A stretch of 64,000 nt of DNA, from assembly GCA_964411255.1 (NCBI GenBank), contig CAYPKD010000005.1, positions 5,547 to 69,546 on the forward strand, written 5' to 3'. This DNA is from an uncultured Gammaproteobacteria bacterium. GTDB taxonomy: Bacteria; Patescibacteriota; Patescibacteriia; UBA11705; DATKZF01. The position numbers and the translations under genes are program-made. Shown piece after piece: positions 3,299 to 49,556 of this stretch; position 1 is the first letter of the stretch, and the number at the start of each line of letters is the position of its first letter. Below the pieces are notes generated by a model. It was given only the letters and a program-made list of their open reading frames with translations. It was not told the DNA's origin and made no database searches.

Positions 3299-3415
3299 TA
3301 TTACGAATACCCCGAATTATTGATCCGAATATCTGAAATATTTTATAATTCGTAGAGTATTCAGATTATTTGGGGTATTAGGATAGGAAATTCGGGTCAT
3401 TAGGATCAATAATTT
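3299..3415. repeat. 8-nt-periodic degenerate word array, inverted halves (..CGAA words then TTCG.. words)
   Basis: Read in 8-nt register: ATTACGAA TACCCCGA ATTATTGA TCCGAATA.., then reverse-complement-type words ..ATAATTCG.. TTTGGGGT ATTAGGAT. Confidence 0.6.
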
Positions 3416-8835: not shown

Positions 8836-8853
8836 AAAAGCAATCTTTTTATT

Positions 8854-8999
8854 TAAGAAGGCCTAAGAAGGCACCAGATGGCTTAATAGATAAAGAGGAA
8901 AAGAGGTTGAGAAGGCAAGTATTAAAATTGGAATAGCCTTCTTTTCCCATATGCCTCATTTTCCTATCAATCCCGCTTAAGCCCTATCAAGCCTTCTTT
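8854..8999. repeat. 8-nt-periodic word array, inverted halves (infB 5' leader)
   Basis: TAAGAAGG CCTAAGAA GGCACCAG .. AGAAGGCA, then ..GCCTTCTT-type reverse-complement words. Confidence 0.6.
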
Positions 9000-9022
9000 A
9001 ATAATGAAAGGAGAATATTACC

Positions 9023-11005
9023 ATGAATGTAACAGAATTAGCTAGAATATTAAAAGTTCCGACAAGCGAGCTTTTGGATAAACTGCCAAAGCTTGGTTTT
9101 AGTATTGGGAAAAAAGCGATAAAGGTAAATGATAAATTAGCTCAGCAGATTATGATCGCCTGGCGAGCGCAGGAAAAGCAAAAGGTACAAGAAGAAAAAT
9201 ATTTATCAACAAAAGATCAGGAAGAAGAAAAGGAAGTGATTGAAAAAGGTGAGGTAAATATCCCACCTGTTTTAACGGTAAGAGATTTTTCAAAAATATT
9301 AAATATGCCTGTTACTGAAGTGATTGCAGAATTAATGAAAAATGGAGTCATGGCATCAGTAAACCAGCGTATTGATTATGATACAGCTGCAATTATTGCA
9401 GAAGAATTGGGATTCCAACCAACAGAAGAGGATGTGGAAGCCAAGTTTGAAGTCGATAAATCAGTAAGAGTTAAGGAAGTTTTAGAAAAAGAAAAAAAAT
9501 TATTAGACCGGGCGCCTGTTATTGTAGTTCTTGGCCATGTTGATCATGGAAAGACAAAGCTTTTGGATGCAATAAGAAAAACAAATGTTGTTGAAGGCGA
9601 GGCCGGAGGAATTACCCAACACATTGGTGCTTATCAAGTGAAAAAACAAGGAAGAAAAATTACTTTTATTGATACTCCAGGACATGAGGCATTTACAGCT
9701 ATGCGTTCCCGCGGAGCAAAAATAGCAGACATTGCCATTTTAATAATTGCTGCTGATGATGGCATTAAGCCACAGACCGTTGAAGCGTTAAAAATTGCCC
9801 AGGAAGCGGGTTTGACAATTGTAGTTGCTATCAATAAAATTGACAAGCCCGCTGCAAATGTTGAAAAAGTGAAGCAAGAGCTAACAAAATATAATTTATT
9901 ATCAGAAGAATGGGGAGGCAAAACAATTTGTGTTCCAATATCAGCGAAACAAAATATTGGCATTGATGAATTATTAGAACAGATTTTATTAGTGGCAGAC
10001 ATGGAAGCTGAAAAAATCGTAGCCAATCCGGAAGGACAATTTATTGGAAGTACGATTGAATCGCATGTTGATAAGAACGTAGGACCGGTAGCCACTGTTT
10101 TAGTGAAAAATGGAACGTTAACAAAAGGAGATTTGTTATCTGGTGATGGCGAGTATTTTGGAAAAGTAAGAGCAATGAAAAATTATAGAGGTGAAGAATT
10201 AGACGAGGCCGGCCCATCAGTCCCTGTTCAAATCATCGGTTTTAAGGTGGCGCCAAAAGTAGGAGATGTTATTGAAGTTGGTGGAGATATGAAAAAAGCT
10301 CGAAGAAAAACAGATTATTATAAATTAACAAAAGAAGAGGAATTTGTTAAAACGTCGCATGACTCAGAAGATAATGAAGAAAAAGAAGGCATTACAAAGC
10401 TGGCTATTGTTTTACGAACCGATGTTTTAGGCTCCCAGGAGGCGATTATTGAATCTTTAGAAAAAATTGAAACTGATGATATAAAAATAGACATTGTATC
10501 AAAAGGACTGGGCAGTGTAAATGAATCAGATGTGTTGGCTGCAGAAGCCAGTAATGCAATGCTTTTGGGTTTTAATGTTATTCCTTCAAACGCAGCTGAA
10601 GCACTGGCCAGAGATAAGGGTATTGAAATAAAAACATTTAAAATAATTTATGAAATAATTGATGAGGTGAAGGCACGGCTGAATGAACTTATTAAGGCTG
10701 AATTAATCAGGGAAGATTTAGGTAAATTGGAGGTTTTAGCGTTATTTAAAAAAACAGATAAAGGGCATATCATCGGGGGCAAAGTAATTGAAGGAAAAAT
10801 AGAGGCAAACACCAGTGCGGCAGTAATAAGAAATAAGGCATTTATAGGACTGGGTAAAATTACAGAGCTACAATCGGGAAAACAGGAGGTAAAAGATGTT
10901 CAAAAGGGCCAGGAAGCCGGACTTTCATTTGAAGGACAGGCTGATATTGAAATTGGCGATATTTTAGATATTTATCGTGAGCGGGAACAGAAGAAAGTCA
11001 TTTGA
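9023..11005 (+). CDS. infB: Translation initiation factor IF-2
   Basis: GHVDHGKT, DTPGHEAF and NKID GTPase motifs. One of the few core genes with an SD (AAAGGAG). Confidence 0.97.
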   Translation: MNVTELARILKVPTSELLDKLPKLGFSIGKKAIKVNDKLAQQIMIAWRAQEKQKVQEEKYLSTKDQEEEKEVIEKGEVNIPPVLTVRDFSKILNMPVTEVIAELMKNGVMASVNQRIDYDTAAIIAEELGFQPTEEDVEAKFEVDKSVRVKEVLEKEKKLLDRAPVIVVLGHVDHGKTKLLDAIRKTNVVEGEAGGITQHIGAYQVKKQGRKITFIDTPGHEAFTAMRSRGAKIADIAILIIAADDGIKPQTVEALKIAQEAGLTIVVAINKIDKPAANVEKVKQELTKYNLLSEEWGGKTICVPISAKQNIGIDELLEQILLVADMEAEKIVANPEGQFIGSTIESHVDKNVGPVATVLVKNGTLTKGDLLSGDGEYFGKVRAMKNYRGEELDEAGPSVPVQIIGFKVAPKVGDVIEVGGDMKKARRKTDYYKLTKEEEFVKTSHDSEDNEEKEGITKLAIVLRTDVLGSQEAIIESLEKIETDDIKIDIVSKGLGSVNESDVLAAEASNAMLLGFNVIPSNAAEALARDKGIEIKTFKIIYEIIDEVKARLNELIKAELIREDLGKLEVLALFKKTDKGHIIGGKVIEGKIEANTSAAVIRNKAFIGLGKITELQSGKQEVKDVQKGQEAGLSFEGQADIEIGDILDIYREREQKKVI

Positions 11006-11006
11006 T

Positions 11007-11038
11007 TAAGGTGGTAGGCCGGTAGGATGGTAGTTTAA
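11007..11038 (+). repeat. TAGNNNGG-type 8-mer array
   Basis: TAAGGTGG TAGGCCGG TAGGATGG TAGTTTAA. Confidence 0.6.
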
Positions 11039-11134
11039 TTGAAGAAATATAAACTACTTGCTATTCTATTCTAACTTTTTTAATTTTCAATATTTTGATA
11101 TAATAAAATAGTCTCTAATAAATAAAATAAAAAT

Positions 11135-11519: not shown

Positions 11520-12509
11520 ATGACAGATAAAAATACAATTTATGATGTAATAATCATCGGTGCTGGCGCTGCAGGTTTGACAGCAGCCATTTATACTGGC
11601 CGAAGAGAATTGAAAACATTAATTTTGACAAAAGACATTGGCGGCCAGGCTGCGATGACTGATGAAATTGAAAATTGGCCTGGTGAAATTTCTATTTTAG
11701 GACCTGAACTAATGAATAAATTTAAAGCCCAAGCTGAAAAGTGGGGTGCAAAAATTGAATTTGCTGAAATAAAAGAGATTAAAAAAGAAAAAGATTATTT
11801 TGTACTACTTGCAGATGGAAAAGAATATAAAGCATTAACTATAATTTTAGGATTTGGACTTGAGCATAGGAAATTAGGAGTGAGCGGAGAGAAAGAATTT
11901 ACTGGAAAAGGAATATCATATTGCGCCACTTGTGATGGCCCATTATTTCGAGGGAAGACAATTGGTGTGGTTGGCGGAGGTAATTCAGCTTTGGATGCAG
12001 TTGAATATTTAGCAAAGCTGGCGGAAAAGGTTTATATGTTTATTAGAAAAGATACTTTTAGTCCAAATGCAGAGACAGTTCTTGTTGATACAATTCAGAA
12101 TTTGGAAAAACAAGGCAAAGTTGAAGTAATGTGGAACACAGAAGTAAAGGAAATAAAAGGAGAAAAATTAATGAATTCTGTGGAATTTGTTAATAATAAA
12201 ACGAATAAAACACAAGATTTAGAATTAAAGGGTTTATTTATTGAAATTGGCATGGTACCGCAGACAAAAGTGATTGAAGGCCTGGTTGATTTAGATGAAC
12301 GTGGACAAATAGTAATTGATCAGGGATGTAATACCAGCGTGCCTGGCATTTATGCTGCTGGTGATGTAACTATCAGTCCATATAAACAATTGGTCACTTC
12401 TGCTGGGGAAGGTGCAAAAGCAGCTTTATCAGCATATTCTCATATTCAGAAAACTCAGGGTAAAAAAGGCGGAGTTGGGAGTGATTTTACAAAAAAGAAA
12501 ATTATGTAA
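11520..12509 (+). CDS. trxB: Thioredoxin-disulfide reductase
   Basis: GxGxxG FAD motif (IIGAGAAG), CATCDG redox centre, GGGNSA NADPH motif. Confidence 0.93.
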   Translation: MTDKNTIYDVIIIGAGAAGLTAAIYTGRRELKTLILTKDIGGQAAMTDEIENWPGEISILGPELMNKFKAQAEKWGAKIEFAEIKEIKKEKDYFVLLADGKEYKALTIILGFGLEHRKLGVSGEKEFTGKGISYCATCDGPLFRGKTIGVVGGGNSALDAVEYLAKLAEKVYMFIRKDTFSPNAETVLVDTIQNLEKQGKVEVMWNTEVKEIKGEKLMNSVEFVNNKTNKTQDLELKGLFIEIGMVPQTKVIEGLVDLDERGQIVIDQGCNTSVPGIYAAGDVTISPYKQLVTSAGEGAKAALSAYSHIQKTQGKKGGVGSDFTKKKIM

Positions 12510-12620
12510 AAACAGATCAACGGATAGCAACAGATACAACGGAAATCAATTAATATCCGTTTCATCTGTTGTAGATCTGCCAGTCCTGAGCTTGTCGAAG
12601 GGTTGATCCGTTTGAATAAT
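12510..12620 (+). repeat. Shared intergenic hairpin element, copy 1 (abuts the gdh ATG)
   Basis: AACAGATC AACGGATA GCAACAGA TACAACGG.. words and inverted partners. The 3' end GTTGATCCGTTTGAATAAT runs into the ATG. Carries a 30-nt insertion ..GTCCTGAGCTTGTCGAAGG. Confidence 0.75.
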
Positions 12621-13844
12621 ATGAATGCATTTGAAAACGCAATGCAGCAACTTGATAATGCTGCGAAAATAATTAATTTAGATGAAAAAGTGCTTCAGTC
12701 ATTAAAAAGGCCTCAAAAGATAATTGAGGTTTCTTTGCCTGTGAAAATGGATGACGGCTCGTTAAAGTTTTTTGAAGGTTATCGCGTTCAATATAATAAT
12801 TGGCGAGGGCCATTCAAAGGCGGCATTCGGTTCTTTCCAGAAGTTGACAAGGACGAAGTAAAAGCTTTATCGTTTTGGATGACCATAAAGTGCGCTGTTT
12901 TAGATTTGCCGCTTGGAGGCGGAAAAGGCGGTGTTACTGTAAACCCGAAAGAACTTTCAGAAAAAGAGTTGGAAAATTTAAGCCGCGTTTATACCCGGGC
13001 TTTATATAATGACATTGGACCAGACAAAGATGTACCAGCGCCAGATGTTTATACCACTCCTCAAATTATGTCCTGGATGGCTGATGAGTATTCAAAAATT
13101 AAGAAAAAAAAGACACCAGGCGTGATTACCGGAAAACCGCTTGAAGCTGGAGGCTCTGAAGGCAGAAGTACAGCTACGGCTCAGGGAGGATTTTATTTGC
13201 TAAAGCACATTATGGAAATTGAGCAGAGAAAGCCTGAAAATCAAACAGTGGCTATTCAGGGATTTGGCAATGCAGGCTCAGTAATGGCGCAGCTTTGTCA
13301 TCAGGATGGATTAAAAGTAGTGGCAGTTTCAGATTCAAAAGGAGGAATTTATAAAAAAGATGGGTTAGACATTAAAAAAGTTATTGAACATAAAAAAGAA
13401 ACTGGATCAGTGCAAAATTTTGAAAATGCAGAAAATATTTCAAATGAAAAATTATTAGAGCTTGATGTGCAGTTTTTAGTGCCTGCAGCTTTAGAAAATC
13501 AAATAACGCGAAATAACGCAAATAAAATTGACGCCAACATTATTATTGAGCTGGCTAATGGACCGATTACGCCTGAAGCAGACATTATTTTATTTGAAAA
13601 AGGAATAAATGTTGTTCCAGATGTGCTGGCAAATGCAGGTGGGGTGACAGTTTCATATTTTGAATGGTATCAGAATGTAAATAATGAAAAATGGACAGAA
13701 AAAAAGGTTTTTGAAAAATTAAAACCCAAAATGATTGAAAATTACGATCAGGTTTTTGAAAAACGAAATGAATTTCAGGTTGATATGAGGCGGGCAGCGT
13801 TTGTGTTGGCCTTGGAAAGACTAAAGCAAACCTTTCCTTTTTGA
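12621..13844 (+). CDS. gdhA: Glutamate dehydrogenase (Glu/Leu/Phe/Val dehydrogenase family)
   Basis: KGGIRF and PLGGGKGG motifs. Start moved to ATG 12621 (MNAFENAM..); the track extension translates the repeat element. Confidence 0.9.
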   Translation: MNAFENAMQQLDNAAKIINLDEKVLQSLKRPQKIIEVSLPVKMDDGSLKFFEGYRVQYNNWRGPFKGGIRFFPEVDKDEVKALSFWMTIKCAVLDLPLGGGKGGVTVNPKELSEKELENLSRVYTRALYNDIGPDKDVPAPDVYTTPQIMSWMADEYSKIKKKKTPGVITGKPLEAGGSEGRSTATAQGGFYLLKHIMEIEQRKPENQTVAIQGFGNAGSVMAQLCHQDGLKVVAVSDSKGGIYKKDGLDIKKVIEHKKETGSVQNFENAENISNEKLLELDVQFLVPAALENQITRNNANKIDANIIIELANGPITPEADIILFEKGINVVPDVLANAGGVTVSYFEWYQNVNNEKWTEKKVFEKLKPKMIENYDQVFEKRNEFQVDMRRAAFVLALERLKQTFPF

Positions 13845-16469: not shown

Positions 16470-16494
16470 AAGGACTCTTTTGGGTCCTTTTTTA
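16470..16494 (+). terminator. Rho-independent terminator
   Basis: AAGGACTC-TTTT-GGGTCCTT followed by TTTT. Confidence 0.7.
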
Positions 16495-16495
16495 C

Positions 16496-16524
16496 TTGAT
16501 TTTTTGTAAAAATTCAGATAGAAT
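16496..16524 (+). promoter_or_regulatory. Sigma70-type promoter for leuS
   Basis: TTGATT, 17-nt spacer, TAGAAT. Confidence 0.45.
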
Positions 16525-16539
16525 AGTAATAGTTTTTAG

Positions 16540-16630
16540 AAAAACAGATCAACAGATCAGCAACGGATACAACGGAAATCATTTGACATCTGTTTCATCT
16601 GTTGAATATCCGTTGATCCGTTTGAACAAT
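16540..16630 (+). repeat. Shared intergenic hairpin element, copy 2 (forms the leuS 5' UTR)
   Basis: Same words as 12510-12620 and the same 3' end GTTGATCCGTTTGAACAAT before the ATG. Lacks the 30-nt insertion. Confidence 0.75.
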
Positions 16631-19036
16631 ATGAAGAAATATAATCACCAAAAATTAGAAAAAAAGTGGCAAGAGTATTGGGAAGAAAAAGAAATATACA
16701 AAGCTTTGGATTTTGATCAAACAGATAAGCCTAAATATTACAGTTTAATAGAATTCCCTTATCCATCTGGGGAAGGTCTTCATGTTGGCCATCCGCGAAG
16801 CTACACCGCCTTAGATGTTATTGCCAGAAAGAAAAGGATGCAAGGGTATAATGTTTTATTCCCAATTGGCTGGGATGCTTTTGGTTTACCCACGGAAAAT
16901 TATGCAATAAAAACCGGTATTCATCCAAAATTAGCTACTGCTCAAAATGTTAAAAGATTTACAAAGCAATTAAAGAGCCTGGGATTGAGTTTTGACTGGT
17001 CAAGGGAAATAAATACTACTGATCCTGAATATTATAAATGGACGCAATGGATATTTTTAAAATTGTATGAAAATGGTTTAGCATATAAAAAGAAAATGCC
17101 AATTAATTGGTGTCCTTCATGCAAAATTGGTTTAGCCAATGAAGAAGTGGTCAGTGGAGTTTGTGAGCGCTGCGGTCATGACGCAGAAAAAAGAGATATG
17201 AAACAATGGCTTTTAAAGATAACTGCATATGCAGATCGTTTGATTGAGGATTTGGAAACCGTTGATTATTCTGAGAATATTAAAACAGCGCAAATAAATT
17301 GGATTGGCCGGAGCGAAGGAGCTGATGTTGATTTTGAAATAAAAGGAACAGATAAAAAACTTAGTGTTTTTACCACCAGACCTGATACTTTATTTGGCGC
17401 AACGTACATGGCAATTGCTCCTGAACATGAATGGGTTGAAGAAATCACCACAAAAGACAATAAAGAAGCTGTTTTTAATTATCAAAAGCAGGCCAGGCAA
17501 AAATCAGATTTAGAAAGAACTGATTTGGCAAAAGAAAAGACCGGAGTGTTTACTGGCGCGTATGCAATTAATCCGGTCAATGGCCAGGAAATTCCAATTT
17601 GGGTTGCTGATTATGTTTTGTCAACTTATGGCAGTGGAGCAATTATGGCGGTACCAGCGCATGATGAGCGTGATTATGAATTTGCCAAAAAATATGATTT
17701 GCCAATTATTGAAGTTATTAAAGGCGGAGACATCGCAAAAGAAGCTTACACCGAAGATGGTGAGTTAATAAATTCAGAAATGCTTAATGGTTTAAATGTT
17801 AGTGATGCCATAAGTAAAATAAATAAATGGCTGGAGGAAAAAGAATTTGGTAAAGCAACTATTAATTATAAGCTTCGCGACTGGATTTTTTCCCGGCAAC
17901 ATTATTGGGGTGAGCCAATACCAATTGTTTTTTGTAAAAAATGCGGTACAGTACCTGTCCCATATGAAGAATTGCCACTGGAGTTGCCAAAAGTTGAAAA
18001 TTATAAGCCAACTGAAACGGGTGAATCACCTTTAGCAAATATTAAAAAGTGGGTTAATACAAAATGTCCAAAATGTAAGGGATCTGCAAAGAGAGAAACA
18101 GACACAATGCCAAACTGGGCTGGCAGTTCATGGTATTTCTTGCGATATTGCGATCCAAAGAACAGTGAAGAATTTGCAAATTCTGAGAAACTAAAATATT
18201 GGTTTCCAATAGATTTATACAATGGCGGAATGGAACACACAACATTGCATTTATTGTATTCCAGATTTTGGCATAAATTTTTATTTGATATAGATTTAGT
18301 GCCAACTTCAGAGCCTTACATGCAGCGGAGATCTCATGGCTTGATTATCGGAGAGGATGGACAGAAAATGTCAAAGTCTAGAGGTAATGTTATTAATCCG
18401 GACGATATTGTTAAGGAGCACGGAGCAGATGTTTTGAGAACATATGAGATGTTTATCGGTCCATATGATCAGTCTATCGCATGGTCAACAAACGGTATAA
18501 ATGGAATTCGGAGGTTTATTGATAGGATTTATAATTTTAAGGGTTTTAAAAATAATGGAACTAAGGATTCTGAGGAAGTTGAGATATTATTGCAAAAGAC
18601 AATAAAAAAAGTAACAGATGATATAGATAAAATGCATTTTAATACAGCTATTAGCGCTTTAATGATTTTATTGAACAAATTTGAAGAAGAAAAGATTATT
18701 TCAAAAGATACTTGGAAAATATTTTTAATAATGTTTTCTGTGTTCGCGCCACATATAACGGAAGAGCTTTGGCAGGCTCTGGGTGAAAAGACCAGCATAT
18801 GCCTAAAACCATGGCCCAAGTATGATGAGGGTAAAATTAAAGAAGAAAAAATTAAATTAGTAGTACAGGTTGATGGTAAGGTACGGGCAAATATCGAGGT
18901 AGAAAGCGGAATAATTGAAGACGAAGCAAAACAAATAGCATTGAAAGATGAAAAATTAAAAAAATCTATTGGGGATAAGGAAATTAAAAAAATTGTGTTT
19001 GTGAAGGATAAGCTGATTAATTTTGTGATAAAGTAA
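16631..19036 (+). CDS. leuS: Leucine--tRNA ligase
   Basis: HVGH and KMSKS class I signatures, CP1 editing domain. Start moved to ATG 16631 (MKKYNHQKLEKKWQ..). Confidence 0.96.
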   Translation: MKKYNHQKLEKKWQEYWEEKEIYKALDFDQTDKPKYYSLIEFPYPSGEGLHVGHPRSYTALDVIARKKRMQGYNVLFPIGWDAFGLPTENYAIKTGIHPKLATAQNVKRFTKQLKSLGLSFDWSREINTTDPEYYKWTQWIFLKLYENGLAYKKKMPINWCPSCKIGLANEEVVSGVCERCGHDAEKRDMKQWLLKITAYADRLIEDLETVDYSENIKTAQINWIGRSEGADVDFEIKGTDKKLSVFTTRPDTLFGATYMAIAPEHEWVEEITTKDNKEAVFNYQKQARQKSDLERTDLAKEKTGVFTGAYAINPVNGQEIPIWVADYVLSTYGSGAIMAVPAHDERDYEFAKKYDLPIIEVIKGGDIAKEAYTEDGELINSEMLNGLNVSDAISKINKWLEEKEFGKATINYKLRDWIFSRQHYWGEPIPIVFCKKCGTVPVPYEELPLELPKVENYKPTETGESPLANIKKWVNTKCPKCKGSAKRETDTMPNWAGSSWYFLRYCDPKNSEEFANSEKLKYWFPIDLYNGGMEHTTLHLLYSRFWHKFLFDIDLVPTSEPYMQRRSHGLIIGEDGQKMSKSRGNVINPDDIVKEHGADVLRTYEMFIGPYDQSIAWSTNGINGIRRFIDRIYNFKGFKNNGTKDSEEVEILLQKTIKKVTDDIDKMHFNTAISALMILLNKFEEEKIISKDTWKIFLIMFSVFAPHITEELWQALGEKTSICLKPWPKYDEGKIKEEKIKLVVQVDGKVRANIEVESGIIEDEAKQIALKDEKLKKSIGDKEIKKIVFVKDKLINFVIK

Positions 19037-19037
19037 A

Positions 19038-19166
19038 ACCAGCATTTCTGCTGTACGCCTGCCAGTTTCGTGGTCAGCGGCAGAGATGCCGCTTGATTCA
19101 GTGCAGGCGCTTACAAGCACCATTTCTGGTGCTACCCAAAATGACAGCAGAAATGCTGGTTTTTTG
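19038..19166 (+). other. Branched G+C-rich structured element closed by a 17-bp perfect stem plus T-run (complex terminator or small RNA)
   Basis: ACCAGCATTTCTGCTGT (19038-19054) pairs with ACAGCAGAAATGCTGGT (19144-19160), then TTTTTT. Inner hairpins are GCGGCA-GAGA-TGCCGC, AGCACCA-TTTC-TGGTGCT and CGCCTGC/GCAGGCG. Confidence 0.6.
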
Positions 19167-20774: not shown

Positions 20775-20789
20775 AAACCGGACATGAAG

Positions 20790-21130
20790 ATGCCCGGGTA
20801 ACCCTGCTAGTGGAAGTTTTTTAATCACAACCAATATTAGCGCGCAGAAGAGTATGTATTCATCCTGGCTGAGTCCGTTTCCTCCAGCTTTAAGCACAGT
20901 ACATCTGTACAGAGCCAATAGAAGCAGAATCTGCGTTTGGTAAATTATCTCTCTGCACACAGCTGGCTTTGACCGATTACTGCTCAGAAGGGAAATAACT
21001 TGCACAATACACTCTCCTTATGCTATTTTGTTCGCTTTGAAGTTTTACCCTCAAAGGTACTATCAAATAGATCATAAAGAAAAGCATACGCAGGGTAATA
21101 CTATTATATATCAAAGAAATAAAAATGGAA
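20790..21130. other. ORF-poor, G+C-richer segment of unknown nature
   Basis: No plus-strand ORF. The only candidate is minus ORF 20652..21005 (AAGGAG-N8-GTG), which would run 123 nt antisense into the neighbouring gene. Confidence 0.3.
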
Positions 21131-21203: not shown

Positions 21204-21398
21204 ATGGCCAGAAAAAAGACAAAGATTACCATTAAAATGAAGGAAACTGAGCAAGAGAAAGCTAAAAGGCGGCGTCGATCTGCCAGACGGGCAGGAGAGA
21301 CAGTTCATAAGCCTACCAGAGCTCATGAACCAAAAACCCGCTATAAGCGATCTCGAGCCAAACAGCAGCTTCGCAATCGACTGCAAAAGGAGGGCTAA
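21204..21398 (+). CDS. 64-aa highly basic (Arg/Lys-rich) protein
   Basis: SD TAAGGAGGTG. Sequence MARKKTKITIKMKETEQEKAKRRRRSARRAGE... The antisense ORF 21186..21386 lacks signals. Confidence 0.6.
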   Translation: MARKKTKITIKMKETEQEKAKRRRRSARRAGETVHKPTRAHEPKTRYKRSRAKQQLRNRLQKEG

Positions 21399-30087: not shown

Positions 30088-30195
30088 GAAAACAGATATT
30101 AATTTGTTTCCGTTTTATATCTGTTGCTATCCGCTTGCCCCGAGCGACCTGTCCTGAGCGAAGTCGAAGGAAGTTGAGGCGTTGATCCGTTTCTA
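30088..30195 (+). repeat. Shared intergenic hairpin element, copy 3 (5' arm deleted, no downstream ORF)
   Basis: AAAACAGAT..TTCCGTTTTATATCTGTTGCTATCCGC.., insertion CGAGCGACCTGTCCTGAGCGAAGTCGAAGG, then GTTGATCCGTTT. Confidence 0.65.
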
Positions 30196-31943: not shown

Positions 31944-32191
31944 TAGCTTCTCCTTATGGCAGGTTTGTTATTAAGCAAGCGTCCTTGCAAAGCAGGGCTG
32001 TCCAGCAGAGATGACTGGATAGCAAAATACAGGTCCCAAAAGGGAAAATTGTAAATGTGCAGGCCTTCTTGACGTCTCAAGAAAAGGCAAAAATAAATGA
32101 AAAATCACTTGCTTTTGCCTTTTCTTGTTTGAGTAAAGTTAACATTTAATATTGCTAGTGTCAAGCATGTATATAAATAAAATAGCCTTTT

Positions 32192-32351
32192 AAAAAACAG
32201 GCCCGTTAGGCCTGATTTAATCTTTTTCAATTTCGGCTTGTGCCGACCTACTTTTTGCTGCCAAAAAGTAGGCAAAAAGCACTGGGGGGCTTCAAATGCG
32301 AAGCAACGATTAAGTTTGAGGATCGCCCCAAGGGCAATCAGCCCCCCAGAC
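32192..32351 (-). ncRNA. Candidate about 160-nt small RNA (unknown family)
   Basis: Weak promoter (TTGTAA, 15 nt, TAGAAT at 32357-32383). 10-bp closing stem 32282-32291/32340-32349 with two inner hairpins. 11-bp hairpin CCTACTTTTTG/CAAAAAGTAGG. TCGGC-ACAA-GCCGA. Terminator CAGGCC-TAACG-GGCCTG plus TTTTTT. Confidence 0.4.
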
Positions 32352-32385
32352 CCCCGATTCTATTGACGAATTATTTTTTACAAAA

Positions 32386-32412
32386 GACCACCAGTTTCCT
32401 GGTGGCTTTTAT
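32386..32412. terminator. Bidirectional Rho-independent terminator
   Basis: GACCACCAG-TTTC-CTGGTGGC, with T-runs on both strands, directly after the stop of 32409..32744. Confidence 0.7.
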
Positions 32413-32744
32413 TCTAATTCCTTTCTCAATTTTTTTATTTCTGCTTCAGTATCTTTTGATTTATCTTGTTTTTTTACATCTATTATTCTTTGAGTTAACA
32501 TTTGTTGTGATTTTGCCAGAGCTGCTTGACGATTTGTTTTTATTTGTTCATGCATTTTTTTAGCTTCTGCTACTTGTTTTTGAGCCAGTTCTTCAAGTTC
32601 TTGAGGAGTTTTTGTTTGCATTTCAATAATTAAGTTTAATTCATCTTCAGTCAGATCTTTAGCCATTGAAAGCAACTTGTCTTTTTTTGCTTTTGGCAAA
32701 TTTGATTTTTTTATTTGAGTAATTATTTTCTTTTTTTTATCCAT
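32409..32744 (-). CDS. 111-aa Lys/Glu-rich coiled-coil protein
   Basis: Start is 1 nt from the upstream stop (translational coupling). No family recognised. Confidence 0.65.
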   Translation of the reverse strand: MDKKKKIITQIKKSNLPKAKKDKLLSMAKDLTEDELNLIIEMQTKTPQELEELAQKQVAEAKKMHEQIKTNRQAALAKSQQMLTQRIIDVKKQDKSKDTEAEIKKLRKELE

Positions 32745-32745
32745 A

Positions 32746-33111
32746 TTAAATTGCTTGGGCTATTCTCATAAGCTGACCAGTAATATAAATTGCTTTTGAC
32801 AATCTTTTATGCTCTCGAACCCAGTTGTTAAATTTAGCTCTGTTGGCATTGGCTTCATCTCTTATGTTCTCTTCGGCTAACTGGGATATTTCCAAAACGC
32901 GCTCATCGTCTTCATCTACACCCAGATCTTCAGCCAGTTGAGCAGGATCTCCTTCCCATATGTTACTCTCTTCAAATTTTTTTAATTCTTCTTCTGATAA
33001 TTCTTCAAGCTCGCCGCTTTCCAGCATTTCAAAAAAATTCTGCTCTTCTTCAGGAGTAGATATTTGTTCTGGAGCTTCAAGCTCAGGTTGTAATTGTTCT
33101 ATATCAACCAT
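32746..33111 (-). CDS. 121-aa strongly acidic protein
   Basis: No SD. A -10-like TATACT ends 9 nt before the ATG (possible leaderless mRNA). No family recognised. Confidence 0.6.
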   Translation of the reverse strand: MVDIEQLQPELEAPEQISTPEEEQNFFEMLESGELEELSEEELKKFEESNIWEGDPAQLAEDLGVDEDDERVLEISQLAEENIRDEANANRAKFNNWVREHKRLSKAIYITGQLMRIAQAI

Positions 33112-33140
33112 ACGATATTAGTATAACATATTACATTTTA

Positions 33141-33350
33141 CAAACAAAAAACAGCCTGCCAAAGAGACTGTTTTTTGATATTATCATTGGGATTACTGAT
33201 TTGATATTACTCTAACATCACACTGTTGCCAAGAAAAGATAGTTGGAGAGAGGTTTAAAGAACATCTATCTCTTTTGGCAAGCAGTGTGATGCCAAAGTT
33301 TGTTTACAAACTCCAGAGGAATTAGGAGCAGATGAGTGCTCCTAAAGGAA
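33141..33350 (-). ncRNA. Hairpin-dense 3' UTR or candidate sRNA downstream of the DHH-like gene
   Basis: AGGAGCA-GATGA-GTGCTCCT, AGTTTG-TTTA-CAAACT, a long imperfect hairpin 33216-33242/33266-33292 (about 23 bp), then terminator 33146-33176 with T-run on the minus strand. Confidence 0.4.
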
Positions 33351-33353
33351 AGA

Positions 33354-34199
33354 TTAGGAAAAGAGAGAATTGGCAGTTTCTGCCAGTTTGACAGGATCTA
33401 CGTTGGAAGGACTGGTAGCCGGAGCCTTTCTGGTACCGCGACTGAAAAGAAATCCTGAAGAATGGGCAAACCATTGATCCAGTTCACCCTGCTGTTCAAC
33501 TATTTCTCGAAGCTGGGGATGATCCATGCGCAAAGTCTGTGATCCCTCGCGGAAAATACCCAGACTATGGCCGTCTACGTAGACAATGGCTTTTACACCA
33601 CGCTCAAACAAAACATATGAGGTGGCGCAGTGTCGCATGTTTCTGAGAATAGCCACATTGTCTCCAGGCAAAATTTCAGCCTCATTAGCTTCAATCTTAG
33701 CCATTTGACGGGATCGGCCAGCTTTCAGCATACCATCAAAGATTTCTGACATGCATTCGATAACAGTATCGTCCCGGCCAGGAAAAATAGACTGGAAAGC
33801 ACGAAGTACTGAATTGATGCCGGTCAGCGAGAAGATTTGCTGCGCTTCATCATTGATTTCAGGCGCCAGGAATTTGACAGCAGAGCCATGAGCATCCTGG
33901 GCATCAATGAATGTAACCAGCGGAGCAAGAGCTTCCTGGTCATTTTTTGAAGCCAGTTTTGAAATGATAGTGGCAAAACAGGAATGTACTGTGCCATCAT
34001 CATCTTTTTTGCCTTTTACTCCTTTGCCGCCAGCTTCAATGTCAACGGCAACAGCTTTATCCTCATTGAGTCCAGTCCCGTCCCAGTTAGCTGGGCGGAA
34101 ACAAACTTCAGCATCCATGTATGCTTCAGCAAAAGTACGGATAGCCCATACAGATGCCACCGCATCAAGGTCCACGTTCATGTGGGTAAAAATTTTCAT
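33354..34199 (-). CDS. DHH-superfamily-like phosphoesterase (divergent)
   Basis: SD AAAGAGAGG. Motif I-like THMNVDLDAVAS, AVAVDIEAGG, FIDAQDAHG (DHH appears as DAH), FAHSSGF near the C-terminus. Confidence 0.55.
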   Translation of the reverse strand: MKIFTHMNVDLDAVASVWAIRTFAEAYMDAEVCFRPANWDGTGLNEDKAVAVDIEAGGKGVKGKKDDDGTVHSCFATIISKLASKNDQEALAPLVTFIDAQDAHGSAVKFLAPEINDEAQQIFSLTGINSVLRAFQSIFPGRDDTVIECMSEIFDGMLKAGRSRQMAKIEANEAEILPGDNVAILRNMRHCATSYVLFERGVKAIVYVDGHSLGIFREGSQTLRMDHPQLREIVEQQGELDQWFAHSSGFLFSRGTRKAPATSPSNVDPVKLAETANSLFS

Positions 34200-34317
34200 T
34201 TTCGCCTCTCTTTGTTGTGAAAAATTTCCTCTGGAATTTGCAAATTTTTAATTAACACTCTTCGAAATTTATTAAAAGTTAATAAATTTTGGAGAGCGAA
34301 GGAATTTTGTAATTCCT

Positions 34318-34635
34318 TCAGATTTGAGGTAGCGGCCAAAGCTGACGAAGCTGTTTGTCAAAGAATTCGTAAGCTTCAAAATCAGCACCGCAAAGTGTGA
34401 GTTTTGCAATTACTGGTATGAGTTGATTGTGCTCTGCTTTATTGGTGATTACGACATATGAATGGTAAGCAGAGGGATTGAAGTCATTGATTATGACATA
34501 GTCCAGTTTATCTGGCGGGGTCATCCAGTGTGAATCAATGGTAATAACCTGATCAAACTGAAAGCCTTCTTGTCTGGCTAGATCAATGATTTCAGTTGTG
34601 ATTGAACCGAACCAGAACTGGATCAGTATTTTCAC
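34318..34635 (-). CDS. 105-aa hypothetical protein
   Basis: Start re-assigned to GTG 34635, with AAAGGAG 6 nt upstream. The track's ATG at 34698 has no SD. Confidence 0.6.
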   Translation of the reverse strand: MKILIQFWFGSITTEIIDLARQEGFQFDQVITIDSHWMTPPDKLDYVIINDFNPSAYHSYVVITNKAEHNQLIPVIAKLTLCGADFEAYEFFDKQLRQLWPLPQI

Positions 34636-34739
34636 TGAAAGCTCCTTTTTAAAAAAATTTGAAAAAAAACACTCGAATCTAACAAGAGATCCAAGCATTT
34701 TTTCGTACGAAAGTCCGCTTAAGACTCTCTTTCAAAATT

Positions 34740-35100
34740 TCCAAATAAGTTTTAGAAACTTTGAGAGATCGGAGAGTGCAGTGCTCACTCTCCGATGTCC
34801 GTTGCTTTAACCCGTAGGAGGCAGCTTTAGGTGCCTATGCGTTTTAAGGATGCAAGCGTTAAAGATCTCGGCTTGTTCATCCTGTTACCCATCCCCACTA
34901 GAGGATGTATTGGGTGGTTAGCAGAATTTTATACAGGCGCCTCTGCCAGGGCGCAGATGTAAACACATTGATGACAGATTATTATCTCTTGCCACCAAAT
35001 TAATGTTGTGAAGAGCCTTGTTGCTCTTCTCTGAATTCTGAAAATAAATTTCAGAACTCGGAGAAGCTGAGGATGGTTTGACGCATCCTCAGATATTTCC
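34740..35100. other. ORF-free G+C-rich segment with at least 8 stable hairpins (unknown structured RNA or element)
   Basis: Hairpins at 34768-34796 (11 bp perfect), 34813-34841, 34848-34882, 34888-34914, 34937-34954, 35010-35029, 35031-35061 and 35067-35092. Stops occur in all frames. Confidence 0.4.
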
Positions 35101-35126
35101 TTTCTTAAAATTTGGAGGTGAATAAC

Positions 35127-35567
35127 CTAGGCCTCTTTGTTTTGGCTCTGAGCTTCAGCTTCTGCCTGGGCCTTGGCCTGCTTGAGTGCAGCCTTGGCTT
35201 TGGCTTCAGCTTCGGCCTGCTTGCGCTTTTCAGCGTCAAGTTTGGCCAGACCACCGAGGCCTGTGTTGGGCGCACCACCAGCGCGGCTGGAGCCCTGCCG
35301 TCGGCGCTTGATTTCCAAGCGCTTGAAGCGGGGATCACCATGCTGATGCTTTGCCTGGCGGCGGCGCTGGTTGCGGCGCTGGCGGCGCAGATTACGCTTG
35401 GCGCGAAGTTCATCACGCTCAACCTTGACCTGCGCACGTCGCTCAGCATTCTCAGCTTTGCGAACCAGCTCCTGCCATTTCTTCAGGCCACCATGACGGC
35501 CGCAGAAACCGCGGCCAGCCAGGACATCAGCCGTACACCCGTCATGCTTACACTTTTCCACCTTCAT
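35127..35567 (-). CDS. 146-aa Zn-knuckle (C-x4-C-x10-C-x2-H) plus Arg-rich plus Ala/Lys/Glu-tail protein, probable nucleic-acid binder
   Basis: SD GGGAGG 5 nt before the ATG. Contains EKCKHDGCTADVLAGRGFCGRHGG and RRQRRNQRRRQAKH. Chosen over two overlapping ORFs that lack signals. Confidence 0.6.
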   Translation of the reverse strand: MKVEKCKHDGCTADVLAGRGFCGRHGGLKKWQELVRKAENAERRAQVKVERDELRAKRNLRRQRRNQRRRQAKHQHGDPRFKRLEIKRRRQGSSRAGGAPNTGLGGLAKLDAEKRKQAEAEAKAKAALKQAKAQAEAEAQSQNKEA

Positions 35568-35620
35568 GTGGGCCTCCCTATATAAAAAGATTAATAGACA
35601 TTTTTGTCAAAATTGCTGAA

Positions 35621-35766
35621 AGGACGATGTAGGTGAGATGCCAAAGAGATTTGAAGGGACTTAAATAGATTTATTTCCCTTATCTCAATATGGGCAAAAT
35701 ATGCTCAGCCAATCTAATCGCAAGCGAATAGATCAGCATGAACTTCTCTCTCCTCTACATCGTTCT
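35621..35766. other. About 145-nt three-way-junction-like element
   Basis: AGGACGATGTAGGTGAGA (35621-) pairs with TCTCTCCTCTACATCGTTCT (-35766). Inner hairpins are GAGAT..AAGGGA/TCCCTT..ATCTC and CTAATCG-CAAG-CGAATAG. Confidence 0.4.
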
Positions 35767-35780
35767 GTTCAGAAATTAGA

Positions 35781-35815
35781 CATATAAAAACAGACTGAGA
35801 GAACCATGTCTGTTT
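35781..35815 (-). terminator. Terminator-like hairpin inside the long leader (possible attenuator or sRNA 3' end)
   Basis: Minus strand reads AAACAGAC-ATGGTTCTCTCA-GTCTGTTT followed by TTATAT. Confidence 0.4.
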
Positions 35816-35891
35816 AAAATACAGCTTTATAATCTAGCTGACTCTCTCTCCATGAAATTTGTTAGATTTCAATTTTCGATTTTGATTTAGT

Positions 35892-35920
35892 ATTATAGCA
35901 TATTTTTTTAAAAAAGTCAA
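35892..35920 (-). promoter_or_regulatory. Near-consensus sigma70 promoter reading toward 35567
   Basis: Minus strand reads TTGACT, 17-nt spacer, TATAAT. Confidence 0.55.
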
Positions 35921-36045
35921 GACGAGAGCATAATTTAAGTCGTTTTTTGTCTAAATTTACGGAAATTACAAATTTGCTAAACTGGTAAATTAATTAAAAT
36001 TTTAGTAAAAATATTACGAATAATTACGAATTAGCAAGGCTGTTA

Positions 36046-36074
36046 TTGAAAAGCATATATTTAATTGGTAATAT
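36046..36074 (+). promoter_or_regulatory. Sigma70-type promoter
   Basis: TTGAAA, 17-nt spacer, TAATAT. Confidence 0.45.
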
Positions 36075-36110
36075 GATAGAGCCTGTTTTCATGCGGAAAA
36101 GGAGAAAACC

Positions 36111-36545
36111 ATGCAATCATCACCAGAGCTTGGTGTATATGTGGTATTAAAAGACGGTGTAGAAATTGCACGACATCAAAGTGTGGAAAGATTACATGAA
36201 CAATTTCCAGATTGGAATGATGATGAATCAATTAGCATTGTTTATAAGCCATCTGAGGCAGAAAAAGAAATATTACGTGAACTTAAATTATTTCGATCTG
36301 GTGGGAATGTATTAGCAGAGCATGTAGATCCTTTTATTTTACATAGACAATTATTGGAAAAGCATGGAGATAAATGGATAAAAGAATATGAAGGACAATG
36401 GCTGGCAGTTGATGTTGAAAGTGAGCTGGTTATTGATCATGATTGGATGTTGGCTGATTTAGCTGATCGAATTCATGCAAGCAATAAAGATAATAGTAGA
36501 CTAGTCTTATTGTTAGGGATTTCAGATAATGATTTTATAATTTAA
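36111..36545 (+). CDS. 144-aa hypothetical protein
   Basis: SD AAAAGGAGAA. The C-terminal half (YEGQWLAVDVESELVIDHD..) faintly recalls DUF5678-type domains (weak). Confidence 0.6.
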   Translation: MQSSPELGVYVVLKDGVEIARHQSVERLHEQFPDWNDDESISIVYKPSEAEKEILRELKLFRSGGNVLAEHVDPFILHRQLLEKHGDKWIKEYEGQWLAVDVESELVIDHDWMLADLADRIHASNKDNSRLVLLLGISDNDFII

Positions 36546-36595: not shown

Positions 36596-38023
36596 TTAAA
36601 TAGCATTTTTACCTTTAATCACTGCCCATGGAGTTTTTAATAATATCCAAAAATCAAGTTTTAGCGACCAGTTTTCAATATAGAAAATATCCATTTTTGC
36701 TTCTTCATCAAATGGCAAATCGCTTCGACCACTGATTTGAGCAATACCAGTTATTCCAGGTTTTATATCTAAGGTTCGTAATTGCTCTGGCGTATATCTT
36801 TCAACTTCTCTTGGCTGGTGAGGCCGAGGGCCAACTATGCTCATATTTCCGATAAAGACATTGAAAAATTGAGGCAGCTCATCAATGCTGATTTTTCGGA
36901 TAAATCTGCCAACAGCAGTTACGCGGGGATCTTTTTTTATTTTATATAAAGCACCTCTGGACGCCCCTTGTTCTTTTATTAATTTTTTTTCAAGTTCCAA
37001 TGCTTGTTTACTTGATGGTGCATCTGGCCCTGTACTCATATCCCAATACATTGATCTGAATTTGTATACATTGAATTTTTTTCCATTTTGGCCAACTCTT
37101 TCATTCTTATATATAATTGGCCCTTTTGAATTAATTTTTATGGCAATAGCTGTAAATAGCATTATTGGTGAAGATAAGATTATAAAAATAATTGAACTAA
37201 ATAAATCAGAAAATCTTTTAATAATTTTTTTCCAGCCGTCCAGTGGTGTCTTTTTTATTTCAATTACTGGCAGACCAGCAATCATGTGCGTTTCAATGTT
37301 GGTAGCCCTGGCTTCAAAAGGACCGGCAACATATTTAAAAATAATATGATTATATTTGGCAAAATTGATCAATGAAATTGTATCTTTTCTTGAGATATTT
37401 GGATCAGTTTGAATGATTTCATCAATAAATGTTTTTTTATGAAGAGCTTGAATTTTCATTAATGTGTCTTGATTAAACTGTTCAAAATGTTTGAGAATTT
37501 TTAATCCTAATGAAGGTTGTTTTAAGATTGCATTTTTTACAGCATTAGTATTTGAATTTTTTCCAATAATTATAATTTTATGAGTTCCCCAGCCAGTTTT
37601 ATATAAACTATTTTGAACGATTCTAATTATCATTCTGCCAACAATTATGAAAAGGATGCTGAAAAGCCAGGCAAACAAAATAATAAATCTTGATTCAAAA
37701 AGTTCTCTGACAAAGAACATATATAGAATAATTGCAGTCATGCCAGTAGAGCAGGCTAATATAATCCTGGCCATTTCATCAGTGACTTTTGTTTTTTTAA
37801 ATTTATAAAGAGATGACCAAAAAAAGAAAATCAGCCATATTGCAGCCATTACAATTAGTACACCTAAATATTTATTAAATTCCAGATCAAATACAACCGG
37901 CCTTATTTCAGTAACTGATTCAATAAAACGCAGAGAATAAGCGGTAATACCAGCCAATATTAAAAGAAAGTAGTCAGTGACCAGTTTTATAAGTACAAAT
38001 ATTAATTCTGATTTTTTTATCAT
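36596..38023 (-). CDS. Polyprenyl-phosphate sugar phosphotransferase (WbaP/exopolysaccharide priming enzyme family)
   Basis: Multi-TM N-terminus. C-terminal DELPQFFNV..GNMSIVGPRP and KPGITG motifs (Bac_transf). Confidence 0.9.
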   Translation of the reverse strand: MIKKSELIFVLIKLVTDYFLLILAGITAYSLRFIESVTEIRPVVFDLEFNKYLGVLIVMAAIWLIFFFWSSLYKFKKTKVTDEMARIILACSTGMTAIILYMFFVRELFESRFIILFAWLFSILFIIVGRMIIRIVQNSLYKTGWGTHKIIIIGKNSNTNAVKNAILKQPSLGLKILKHFEQFNQDTLMKIQALHKKTFIDEIIQTDPNISRKDTISLINFAKYNHIIFKYVAGPFEARATNIETHMIAGLPVIEIKKTPLDGWKKIIKRFSDLFSSIIFIILSSPIMLFTAIAIKINSKGPIIYKNERVGQNGKKFNVYKFRSMYWDMSTGPDAPSSKQALELEKKLIKEQGASRGALYKIKKDPRVTAVGRFIRKISIDELPQFFNVFIGNMSIVGPRPHQPREVERYTPEQLRTLDIKPGITGIAQISGRSDLPFDEEAKMDIFYIENWSLKLDFWILLKTPWAVIKGKNAI

Positions 38024-38031
38024 AAATTTGT

Positions 38032-38071
38032 TAGGCTGGTAGATCGGTAGGTTAGTAGGTTGGTAGATTTA
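38032..38071 (+). repeat. TAGNNNGG-type 8-mer array
   Basis: TAGGCTGG TAGATCGG TAGGTTAG TAGGTTGG TAGATTTA. Confidence 0.65.
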
Positions 38072-38151
38072 AAAAAAATTGGAAGAAGGACGCTACTAAT
38101 ATTATTGCAATTTTTTGTAAAAATTTCAATAATAACATCCACCTTCCAATT

Positions 38152-42198: not shown

Positions 42199-42205
42199 AT
42201 ATTTT

Positions 42206-42245
42206 TAGATTGGTAGATCGGTAGATTTGTAGATTGGTAGTTAGA
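42206..42245 (+). repeat. TAGNNNGG 8-mer array, left flank of the four-helix-bundle pseudogene
   Basis: TAGATTGG TAGATCGG TAGATTTG TAGATTGG TAGTTAGA. Confidence 0.8.
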
Positions 42246-42246
42246 A

Positions 42247-42629: not shown

Positions 42630-42673
42630 TTTAAAATAATTTCCCATGTACTTTTATCCTATCATTTAAATCT

Positions 42674-49539: not shown

Positions 49540-49556
49540 TAATTTTGAGAATTGGA

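Follow-up and report, generated by a model that had tools for sequence, protein, structure and literature searches.

The 64,000-nt stretch of contig CAYPKD010000005.1 analysed here (the window, 34.8% G+C) carries the gene order trx-trxB-gdh...rnhB...leuS-trmB, which is kept in relatives, and contains three copies of a hairpin element built from repeated AACRGAT words, the subject of this report. One copy fills the spacer between trxB and gdh, one lies in the leader of leuS and a third, truncated, is found further downstream. The window is 100% identical to metagenome contigs of four samples, the longest of which is a 388,698-bp ENA contig. Its closest named LeuS relatives are listed as 'Patescibacteria group bacterium' and the host therefore belongs to the candidate phyla radiation (CPR). 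The three copies and their immediate surroundings, with scores against the family model R1, are as follows.

12510-12613 (+): copy 1 of the AACRGAT hairpin element, 104 nt long with its nested insert; 69.9 bits
12578-12601 (+): nested GC-rich insert TGCCAGTCCTGAGCTTGTCGAAGG in the 3' arm of copy 1, 24 nt
12614-12623 (+): 7-nt spacer GAATAAT and the true gdh ATG (12621), whose 407-aa product matches the orthologues
16470-16524 (+): terminator-like hairpin (16470-16489) with a T run and promoter-like TTGATT-17-TAGAAT (16496-16524), upstream of copy 2
16542-16623 (+): copy 2 of the element, in the leuS leader, 82 nt; 95.5 bits
16624-16633 (+): 7-nt spacer GAACAAT and the leuS ATG (16631), opening a LeuS of 801 aa
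30090-30192 (+): copy 3 of the element, 5'-truncated, with the loop and 3' arm only; 17.8 bits
30135-30180 (+): insertion in copy 3 containing CCTGTCCTGAGCGAAGTCGAAGG, 46 nt, at the same point as the insert in copy 1

Direct reading confirmed the claim of an earlier note on this DNA that copies 1 and 2 share a series of words together with its inverted half. Both copies start with AAACAGATCAAC and end with GTTGATCCGTTT, and form imperfect hairpins with four words per arm, AACRGAT in the 5' arm and ATCYGTT in the 3' arm. The termini AAACRGATCAAC / GTTGATCYGTTT are found at both ends of these two full copies, and the arms are complementary over their whole length. The word-array pattern matches the window at copies 1 and 2 only (0.00 matches expected), and the 12-mer GTTGATCCGTTT, with at most one mismatch, occurs five times (0.29 expected), namely at both ends of copies 1 and 2 and at 30181-30192. 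Upon RNA folding, each of the two full copies is predicted to form one long imperfect hairpin (-33.5 and -30.5 kcal/mol, respectively), with z-scores of -3.1 and -4.7 and none of 200 shuffled sequences folding as well.

Copy 1 begins right after the trxB stop codon TAA (12507-12509), and both full copies run out into GTTGATCCGTTTGAA(T/C)AATATGAA, GAA(T/C)AAT being followed by the ATG, so that each hairpin ends 7 nt before the start codon. The mechanical open reading frames (ORFs) 12603-13844 and 16496-19036 pass through the elements from TTG codons, while the orthologues place the true starts at ATG 12621 (GDH) and ATG 16631 (LeuS); the N-terminal extensions in the ORF list are false, as had been suspected. 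The public gdh call starts from the second ATG, at 12642 (400 aa rather than 407). Neither gdh nor leuS is preceded by a Shine-Dalgarno sequence. The -10 region and first transcribed bases of the promoter-like site before copy 2 are conserved in the related contigs L138, L140 and L143.

An insertion had been reported in copy 1 and is indeed present, although it measures 24 nt rather than 30 nt by comparison with L131, the closest relative, in which a single A occupies its place; outside the insert the two are 95% identical. Copy 3 lacks the 5' arm and carries an insertion, as previously described. Its interior orientation is opposite to that of copies 1 and 2, and it is placed between a terminator-like hairpin (30228-30202, minus strand) and the upstream region of the next minus-strand gene. 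We reject the idea that it marks the edge of an island because the glycosyltransferase/DUF4012/CLIPPER block to the left of it keeps its synteny in relatives with LeuS identities as low as 64%.

The nested inserts of copies 1 and 3 share, at the same point, a GC-rich motif, (T)GCC..CCTGAGC-N2-3-GTCGAAGG. The same motif forms the loop of the L140 leuS-leader hairpin (9945-9980) and is also found in an Anaerolineae metagenome-assembled genome (L039), a recurrence consistent with the earlier remark that the GTCCTGAGC..GTCGAAGG insert resembles a hairpin repeat of many metagenomic ORFs. A BLAST comparison of the small GC-rich insert with plasmids returned only borderline 23-nt matches, in Methylomonas and Planktothrix plasmids. 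The motif looks like a very small dispersed element of wide distribution.

The element is not restricted to the window. A scan of JGI metagenomes with the pattern AAACRGATCAAC-N55-85-GTTGATCYGTTT gave 13 loci. Eleven are clear family members, measuring 81-83 nt apart from one of 102 nt that has a small insert of its own. The scan missed the window's own JGI contig and the family counts are therefore lower bounds. The 11 further copies lie at unrelated loci, on ten contigs of 33-38% G+C and one of 51%, most of them from the same sample set. Pairwise identity of the copies is 77-96%, and the covariance model scores family members at 70-106 bits. As these 11 copies were found via the terminal pattern, their terminal repeats are circular evidence. 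Within each arm the words of this family are spaced by 8, 10-11 and 9 nt, and the flanks are usually RTAA on one side and GAWCA on the other. Two independent short assemblies terminate inside copy 1 (window positions 12534 and 12544), which is typical assembler behaviour at a multi-copy repeat.

In 10 of the 13 copies a real ORF upstream has its end 0-4 nt away from the element. In 12 of the 13 the downstream ORF opens with an ATG 2-16 nt (median 7) beyond it, an association with start codons that the earlier note had proposed to look for. The element usually fills the entire gap between two genes of the same direction, in either orientation relative to them. The interior asymmetry (GATACAAC...GTTTCATC), the flank signature and the gene direction are mutually independent (8:5 and 7:5). 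Five of the 12 downstream genes encode aminoacyl-tRNA synthetases (leuS, serS, proS, pheS, alaS), assigned from their sequences except for leuS, for which Pfam families are on record; the others include fusA, rpsK, rsmH, a dCTP-deaminase-like gene and a glycosyltransferase gene. Some copies are located upstream of promoters or after terminators, such as copy 3 and that of the lysS region of L125. Viral contigs scanned for the element gave no match, and a scan of genome contigs with CAACRGAT-N-CAACRGAT-N-CAACRGA yielded, among the matches listed, unrelated tandem repeats in many phyla and none with the element. An unrelated soil contig of 69% G+C (L133, 312-412) was observed to contain a hairpin of ACGGAT words with the same 12-nt termini, AAACGGATCAAC...GTTGATCCGTTT; this may be chance, or the word type may have spread beyond this clade.

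Comparison of orthologous junctions shows which sites are filled. In L138/L139, of which LeuS is 91% identical to that of the window, trxB and gdh overlap by ATGA (..AAAATATGAATGC; ...AAGAAAATATGAATGCATTTG) with no element and with the same GDH start, and gdh therefore does not need the element. The sister genome reads ATGAATGCA at gdh, where no element is found, and ATGAAAAAA at leuS, where a different hairpin is found; the ATGAA common to copies 1 and 2 is therefore native to the genes. The identity past the ATG is thus real, but it is not part of the element. A related claim, that the element supplies the last nucleotides before the ATG, holds in part: the leuS swap described below reaches the ATG and GAACAATATG recurs after the copies at leuS and alaS, but A/T-rich leaders of the AATATG type are also native to the window genome, and the ATG and second codon belong to the genes.

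At leuS, the window and L138 share a conserved terminator, the promoter-like TTGATT-17-TAGAAT and the ~17 nt that follow it, and conservation resumes with the coding sequence at the ATG. Where the window has 87 nt between these blocks, L138 has an 81-nt hairpin of TTACRGAAA words instead. The swapped segment reaches right up to the ATG. Further relatives bear TACRGAT words (L143, 75% LeuS identity), a short hairpin whose loop is the CCTGAGCGCAGTCGAAGG motif (L140, 77%) or TTTGTAAC words (L142, 75%), and some hairpin is present in this leader in all five genomes with at least 75% LeuS identity, the 8-10-9 word spacing being found in three of them; the leuS leaders of L144 (67%) and L145 (64%) have no hairpin. 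Similarly, the mraZ-rsmH junction is empty in L149 (TAA T ATG), occupied by a CTACAGAT hairpin in L146 and by the AACRGAT family in L128, so that filled and empty sites, as had been suggested for checking, are found among relatives both here and at trxB-gdh. At S13-S11 and L36-S13, each of three genomes (L129, L150, L152) bears a hairpin of a different word family. The word repeat of the infB leader is absent from the same place in L140 and, of the six intergenic regions in the 8.5 kb common to the window and L138, four do not have the same hairpins in both. At S13-S11, L36-S13 and mraZ-rsmH the C-terminus of the upstream protein is unchanged and its stop codon varies between TAA, TAG and TGA. 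An L13 gene is called 16 codons longer on one contig (L150 12409 vs L151 3593) despite an identical S11 protein.

Hairpins of other words are common in these genomes. Five of them have the same spacing or one within a single base of it (window 49551-49636, L138 leuS, L143 leuS, L146 rsmH and L137), and model R1 cross-matches these at 23-49 bits. The words of the sister families are TTACGGA, TTACAGAT, CTACAGAT and TACRGAT, the families differing by the same substitution in every word (e.g., AAC to TAC), and families coexist in one genome (AACRGAT and TTACNGA in the window; both also in L137). Other word-built features of the window are listed below.

3299-3415 (+): CCGAAT-type word repeat filling the rpoC-ftsH spacer; fold z -1.66, not significant (9 of 200 shuffles fold at least as well)
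8850-9005 (+): AAGAAGGC-type word repeat in the infB leader, ~150 nt, inverted arms judged by eye
11006-11070, 42199-42248, 48314-48414 and 58924-59036: further word-built intergenic regions
38024-38075 (-): direct CTACC 8-mer array whose end is 11 nt ahead of the ATG of a sugar-transferase gene (36596-38023)
42199-42713 (-): large hairpin of ~500 nt, with inverted GGTAG/CTACC arrays at 42205-42240 and 42674-42709 (36-nt arms)
49551-49636 (+): TTACNGA-word hairpin of a sister family, filling the spacer before ATG 49641; z -6.5, 43.5 bits, 8-10-9 spacing

The infB-leader repeat is located between a promoter-like region and the Shine-Dalgarno sequence. Including the regions just listed, at least a dozen intergenic regions of the window contain hairpins or arrays of other 7-9-nt words, and about half of its intergenic regions of at least 60 nt hold such structures (an estimate by eye). 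At the level of sequence, these comparisons establish that the element is multi-copy, confined to non-coding spacers, polymorphic between close relatives and interchangeable with sister families, and that the AACRGAT hairpin is one family in a superfamily of word-built hairpins replacing each other at orthologous junctions.

Larger members of this superfamily carry a small ORF in the loop. The large hairpin at 42199-42713 lies between the stop codon of the RNase J gene and the start of trpS, its 3' arm ending ~10 nt before the trpS ATG (42198), and its loop contains a 23S_rRNA_IVP pseudogene, an ORF (PF05635, E 6e-31) with one in-frame stop. Judged by its sequence, it is an element of the rRNA intervening sequence (IVS) type outside an rRNA gene. 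In the L142 leuS leader, a PDDEXK_3 gene lies between 49-nt inverted arms of TTTGTAAC words (9500-9548, 9950-9998), the 3' arm ending 2 nt before the leuS ATG. Word repeats also occur in the RNase P RNA of the window (bacterial class A, 38152-38758, minus strand), which is 607 nt long compared with the 367 positions of the Rfam model. It bears four expansions (15 nt in the P3 loop, 118 nt near model positions 74-89, ~135 nt at the P12 tip and 35 nt in P13/14), three of which, the P3-loop insert being the exception, contain short tandem word repeats (ATTTCGA, CGCAGATTA, ATCAGCGTA, TTTCAC). The cyanobacterial STRR heptamer repeats, too, were reportedly found inside the P12 helix of RNase P RNA by Vioque in 1997, a likeness to the word repeats seen here. 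ORFs of the 23S_rRNA_IVP family are known inside intervening sequences of rRNA genes of CPR bacteria, and the short rRNA insertions of these bacteria are thought to be RNase III-excised IVSs (PMC11270868). Given the cargo ORFs of the large hairpins and the rRNA IVSs with 23S_rRNA_IVP in CPR bacteria, the short hairpins look like ORF-less relatives of the IVS type outside rRNA genes.

The fold of the element was further examined for signs of a conserved RNA. No Rfam family matches it at the gathering score, nor at E<=5 or E<=1. None of 26 pairs shows a compensatory change in an alignment of 13 copies, covariation having been among the checks that the earlier note proposed. On the mRNA-sense strand, G.U pairs (30) are not favoured over A.C oppositions (35). 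With neither covariation nor G.U preference, nothing indicates that an RNA structure is under selection on the strand that is transcribed, and the element would appear to be a young repeat rather than an old structured RNA. An intrinsic terminator was ruled out, no U run following the stem, and an amino-acid specifier logic of the loops (cognate codon) was rejected, as loops follow the subfamily and not the gene. The link between hairpins and starts devoid of a Shine-Dalgarno sequence is not discriminating because most window genes (~70%), with a hairpin or without, lack this sequence.

Several known classes of repeats resemble the element in part. Repetitive extragenic palindromic (REP) sequences and REPINs, mobilised by REP-associated tyrosine transposases (RAYTs), and miniature inverted-repeat transposable elements (MITEs; e.g., Correia, RUP and Rickettsia palindromic elements) are short (about 80-150 nt), multi-copy, non-coding extragenic imperfect palindromes. 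They have conserved termini, lie in either orientation between genes, are co-transcribed and vary in presence between close relatives; Rickettsia palindromic elements enter RNA genes too. Like MITEs, the AACRGAT element is a short non-coding multi-copy repeat at unrelated loci (three window and 11 metagenome copies, next to different genes) with terminal inverted repeats in the two full window copies; unlike them, it has no target-site duplication, and the larger word hairpins that carry 23S_rRNA_IVP or PDDEXK_3 ORFs are made of other words. It fits REPINs in its extragenic position and hairpin size (70-110 nt), but its arms are word arrays rather than small palindromic REP units with a conserved GTAG-type head. 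From REPINs and MITEs alike it differs in that its arms consist of four short periodic words instead of unique sequence or two small REP palindromes, that its sister families keep the architecture while changing the word, and that its copies are flush against stop codons and ~7 nt from start codons.

In construction, the element recalls the TAACTGA heptamers, direct repeats of marine Beggiatoaceae, cyanobacteria and Bacteroidetes (MacGregor 2015, PMC4679880). These are exact 7-mers in direct tandem with a strong forward orientation bias, and a role has been proposed for them in Beggiatoaceae at starts without ribosome-binding sites (PMC4679880). Here as in the TAACTGA and STRR repeats, words are repeated two to six times, mostly in intergenic regions including ribosomal-protein operons, and end a few nt from starts without a ribosome-binding site (median 7 nt, 12 of 13 copies); the AACRGAT core moreover resembles AAC-N-GA. 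In contrast to those repeats, AACRGAT words are imperfect, 8-11 nt apart and arranged in inverted arrays forming one hairpin, and what is dispersed is the 81-nt unit as a whole rather than the word. Direct 8-mers are, by comparison, seen in the CTACC arrays at 38024 and 42199. With rRNA IVSs, the word hairpins have in common that they are extended AT-rich stem-loops in transcribed sequence, sporadic among relatives; the 23S_rRNA_IVP ORF lies in the loop of the CTACC hairpin before trpS, a sister element and not the 81-nt family, and the window RNase P RNA has comparable helix-tip expansions. However, the three AACRGAT copies of the window lie in mRNA leaders or spacers, not in rRNA, and word-periodic arms are not a described feature of IVSs. 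The element is thus closest to REPIN/REP sequences and MITEs by behaviour, to STRR and TAACTGA repeats by construction, and to rRNA IVSs by the cargo forms and the RNase P expansions. It lacks the target-site duplication that defines MITEs, the exact direct heptamers of STRR/TAACTGA repeats and the location in rRNA of IVSs, and its arms seem to lack the REP units of REPINs. A literature search retrieved no report of dispersed intergenic repeats or of such elements in CPR/Patescibacteria genomes, and the AACRGAT family is probably a previously undescribed selfish palindromic repeat, of an ordinary kind in an unusual form and place.

We consider that the element is probably a dispersed, non-autonomous imperfect-palindrome repeat of ~81 nt, MITE/REPIN-like and IVS-like, of this Patescibacteria (CPR) lineage and close relatives. 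Mobility, or at least dispersal, was one of the readings offered by the earlier note and has gained from the 11 further copies at unrelated loci, the empty trxB-gdh site of the sister genome, the truncation of copy 3, the nested insertions of copies 1 and 3 and the assemblies breaking inside copy 1. The element would spread by a copy mechanism and/or gene conversion among copies. Selection would then remove gene-damaging insertions, the survivors in a compact genome being those exactly between stop and start. The spacers that are occupied run from a stop codon, or from a promoter, to a start codon, so that one end of the element abuts the stop while its other end is ~7 nt short of the ATG. Co-transcribed in the mRNA, the element would fold into a hairpin of about -30 kcal/mol, tolerated near starts as it leaves ~7 unstructured A/U-rich nt before the ATG. 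By analogy with rRNA IVSs, the transcript may lose the hairpin through a double-strand RNase cut, and the short elements may be ORF-less derivatives of IVS-like elements. The conserved unequal flanks (RTAA, GAWCA) and the lack of duplication would be reminiscent of single-strand hairpin transposition of the IS200/IS605-RAYT kind.

Several observations weigh against this explanation. No target-site duplication was found in 13 copies, whose asymmetric flanks share no direct repeat, or in three filled/empty comparisons, of which that at trxB-gdh shows only an imperfect AAT(T)ATG similarity. The ends of the copies follow no consistent transposon-like pattern, the 64-kb window contains neither a transposase or RAYT gene nor any other gene for mobilisation, and the independence of the three orientation markers is predicted by no simple transposition model. 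The word centres, R in the 5' arm and Y in the 3' arm, usually do not form Watson-Crick pairs: 12 of the 13 outermost word pairs have A.C or G.T there, as do 32 of the 39 that the outer three words make up. Such a systematic mismatch looks like design, although the copies are related and do not represent 39 independent trials. We infer that ancestral mismatches shuffled by recombination between arms would explain both the mismatched centres and the independent orientation markers. The proportion of aminoacyl-tRNA synthetase genes (5 of 12; binomial P ~1e-5 at a 3% base rate) is not predicted by a purely selfish element, and trpS in the window also lies behind a CTACC array; a link to translation genes, and with it a co-opted role, is a live rival. 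Lastly, junction occupancy is high (leuS leader 5/5 in the clade; S13-S11 and L36-S13 3/3); repeated insertion accounts for this no better than a role under selection does, or ancient residence combined with concerted evolution.

In a different explanation, the hairpins have long resided at these junctions as RNA structures kept by selection in leaders or between cistrons. They would act as signals for processing or stability, as insulators between cistrons or as helpers of initiation without a Shine-Dalgarno sequence, and would look mobile through homogenisation by gene conversion within a genome. Occupied junctions with swapped sequence would be expected of such structures, as would the clean swap borders, which run from just after the conserved promoter and initial transcribed region to the ATG. 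All hairpin-led starts lack a Shine-Dalgarno sequence except that of infB, where the hairpin stops short of it, the median distance from hairpin to ATG (7 nt) is within the range of Shine-Dalgarno spacing, and copies are enriched before aminoacyl-tRNA synthetase and translation genes. The TAACTGA heptamers, a few nt before starts without a ribosome-binding site (PMC4679880), provide a published analogue. Yet orthologous sites are empty with the genes intact or overlapping (trxB-gdh in L138, mraZ-rsmH in L149, infB in L140, leuS in L144/L145), and the window genes lack a Shine-Dalgarno sequence in the same ~70% regardless of hairpins. Some copies, including copy 3 and that of the L125 lysS region, are upstream of promoters or after terminators; neither covariation nor a sense-strand G.U preference was detected; insertions occur in RNase P RNA as well, and some elements bear cargo ORFs. 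We therefore regard resident functional hairpins as a doubtful explanation, though one to be taken seriously.

Unlikely, in our opinion, is a more novel explanation, according to which the word hairpins form one superfamily of IVS-like elements that moved out of the rRNA genes of a CPR clade into its mRNA leaders, operon junctions and RNase P RNA. The repeated word would be the recognition code of a cognate protein, perhaps 23S_rRNA_IVP or PDDEXK_3, and transcripts would have the elements cut out or processed. Co-option would have turned the elements into modular leaders for genes devoid of a Shine-Dalgarno sequence, preferentially aminoacyl-tRNA synthetase and translation genes, with the stem at the place of the Shine-Dalgarno helix.

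The earlier note also considered a cis-regulatory leader shared by two amino-acid-related genes, which in its extended form would be a T-box- or attenuator-like device sensing the amino-acid or tRNA status for gdh, leuS and other aminoacyl-tRNA synthetase genes. The five synthetase genes among 12 and the position of trpS behind another word array speak for it. However, neither a T-box nor any other Rfam family matches the element even at E<=5, 81 nt is too short and too simple for such a leader, no U run follows the stem and the loops group by subfamily rather than by amino acid. Both orientations occur, covariation and strand bias are lacking, and the element is also found before fusA, rpsK, rsmH, the dCTP-deaminase-like gene and the glycosyltransferase gene, while gdh of the sister genome and leuS of more distant relatives do without it. 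The empty sites largely refute this very unlikely explanation, and a regulatory switch common to gdh and leuS is not supported.

Even less credible are recombination sites of a cassette system, that is integron attC-like folded single strands recognised by a tyrosine recombinase. The element is an imperfect palindrome of attC-like size with regularly placed non-paired bases, fills spacers that separate the stop of an ORF from the next start, and its ends (GATCAAC / GTTGATC) loosely resemble RYYYAAC / GTTRRRY. However, GATCAAC does not fit RYYYAAC, the window has no integrase gene, and the flanking genes are syntenic housekeeping genes (trx-trxB-gdh...leuS, S13-S11, S7-EF-G, mraZ-rsmH) with the element in mixed orientation relative to them; these are therefore not integron cassettes. 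Finally, RNA-guide arrays of the TIGR-Tas or CRISPR-like type, although TIGR arrays occur in CPR, including stem-loop forms with palindromic edges (PMC12045711), have a negligible chance of being involved and are already refuted by anatomy, the elements being single and dispersed instead of tandem, with a period of 8-11 nt and not about 36 nt, with no variable spacers or box C/D pattern and no Nop-domain (Tas) gene nearby.

Other regions of the window drew attention in passing. Directly after the leuS stop codon lies a GC-rich region of ~125 nt (19037-19165, +) with long-range self-complementarity and a T run at its end, conserved in the sister genome L138 and without a match in Rfam, which may be a small RNA or an elaborate terminator. 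Four long intergenic regions (20775-21000, 31944-32408, 34699-35126 and 35568-35860) have a G+C content far above that of the rest of the window and adjoin a run of small ORFs without a Pfam match (32409-36545); they gave no Rfam match at E<=1 and contain no tRNA or tmRNA. A small ORF at 21204-21398 (+), in an otherwise non-coding 690 nt, encodes a very basic 64-aa protein and is preceded by a strong AAGGAGG; a gene is called there on the public contig (L001 19685-19879). The ORF at 38887-39660 (+) encodes a 257-aa protein without a Pfam match, in which five to six tandem 24-nt repeats (39513-39656) encode an Ala/Lys-rich motif.

CPR/Patescibacteria genomes are small and tightly packed. In this clade the hairpins of the spacers turn over between genomes sharing 91% LeuS identity. 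In practice, word hairpins break assemblies and cause systematic gene-calling errors, as seen in the extensions of gdh and leuS, the shifted public gdh start and the extended L13. They also offer a natural system in which a stable predicted hairpin lies 7 nt upstream of starts without a Shine-Dalgarno sequence. Should the link to the 23S_rRNA_IVP and PDDEXK_3 cargo be true, it would provide a first handle on the role of the widespread, uncharacterised 'intervening sequence' proteins.

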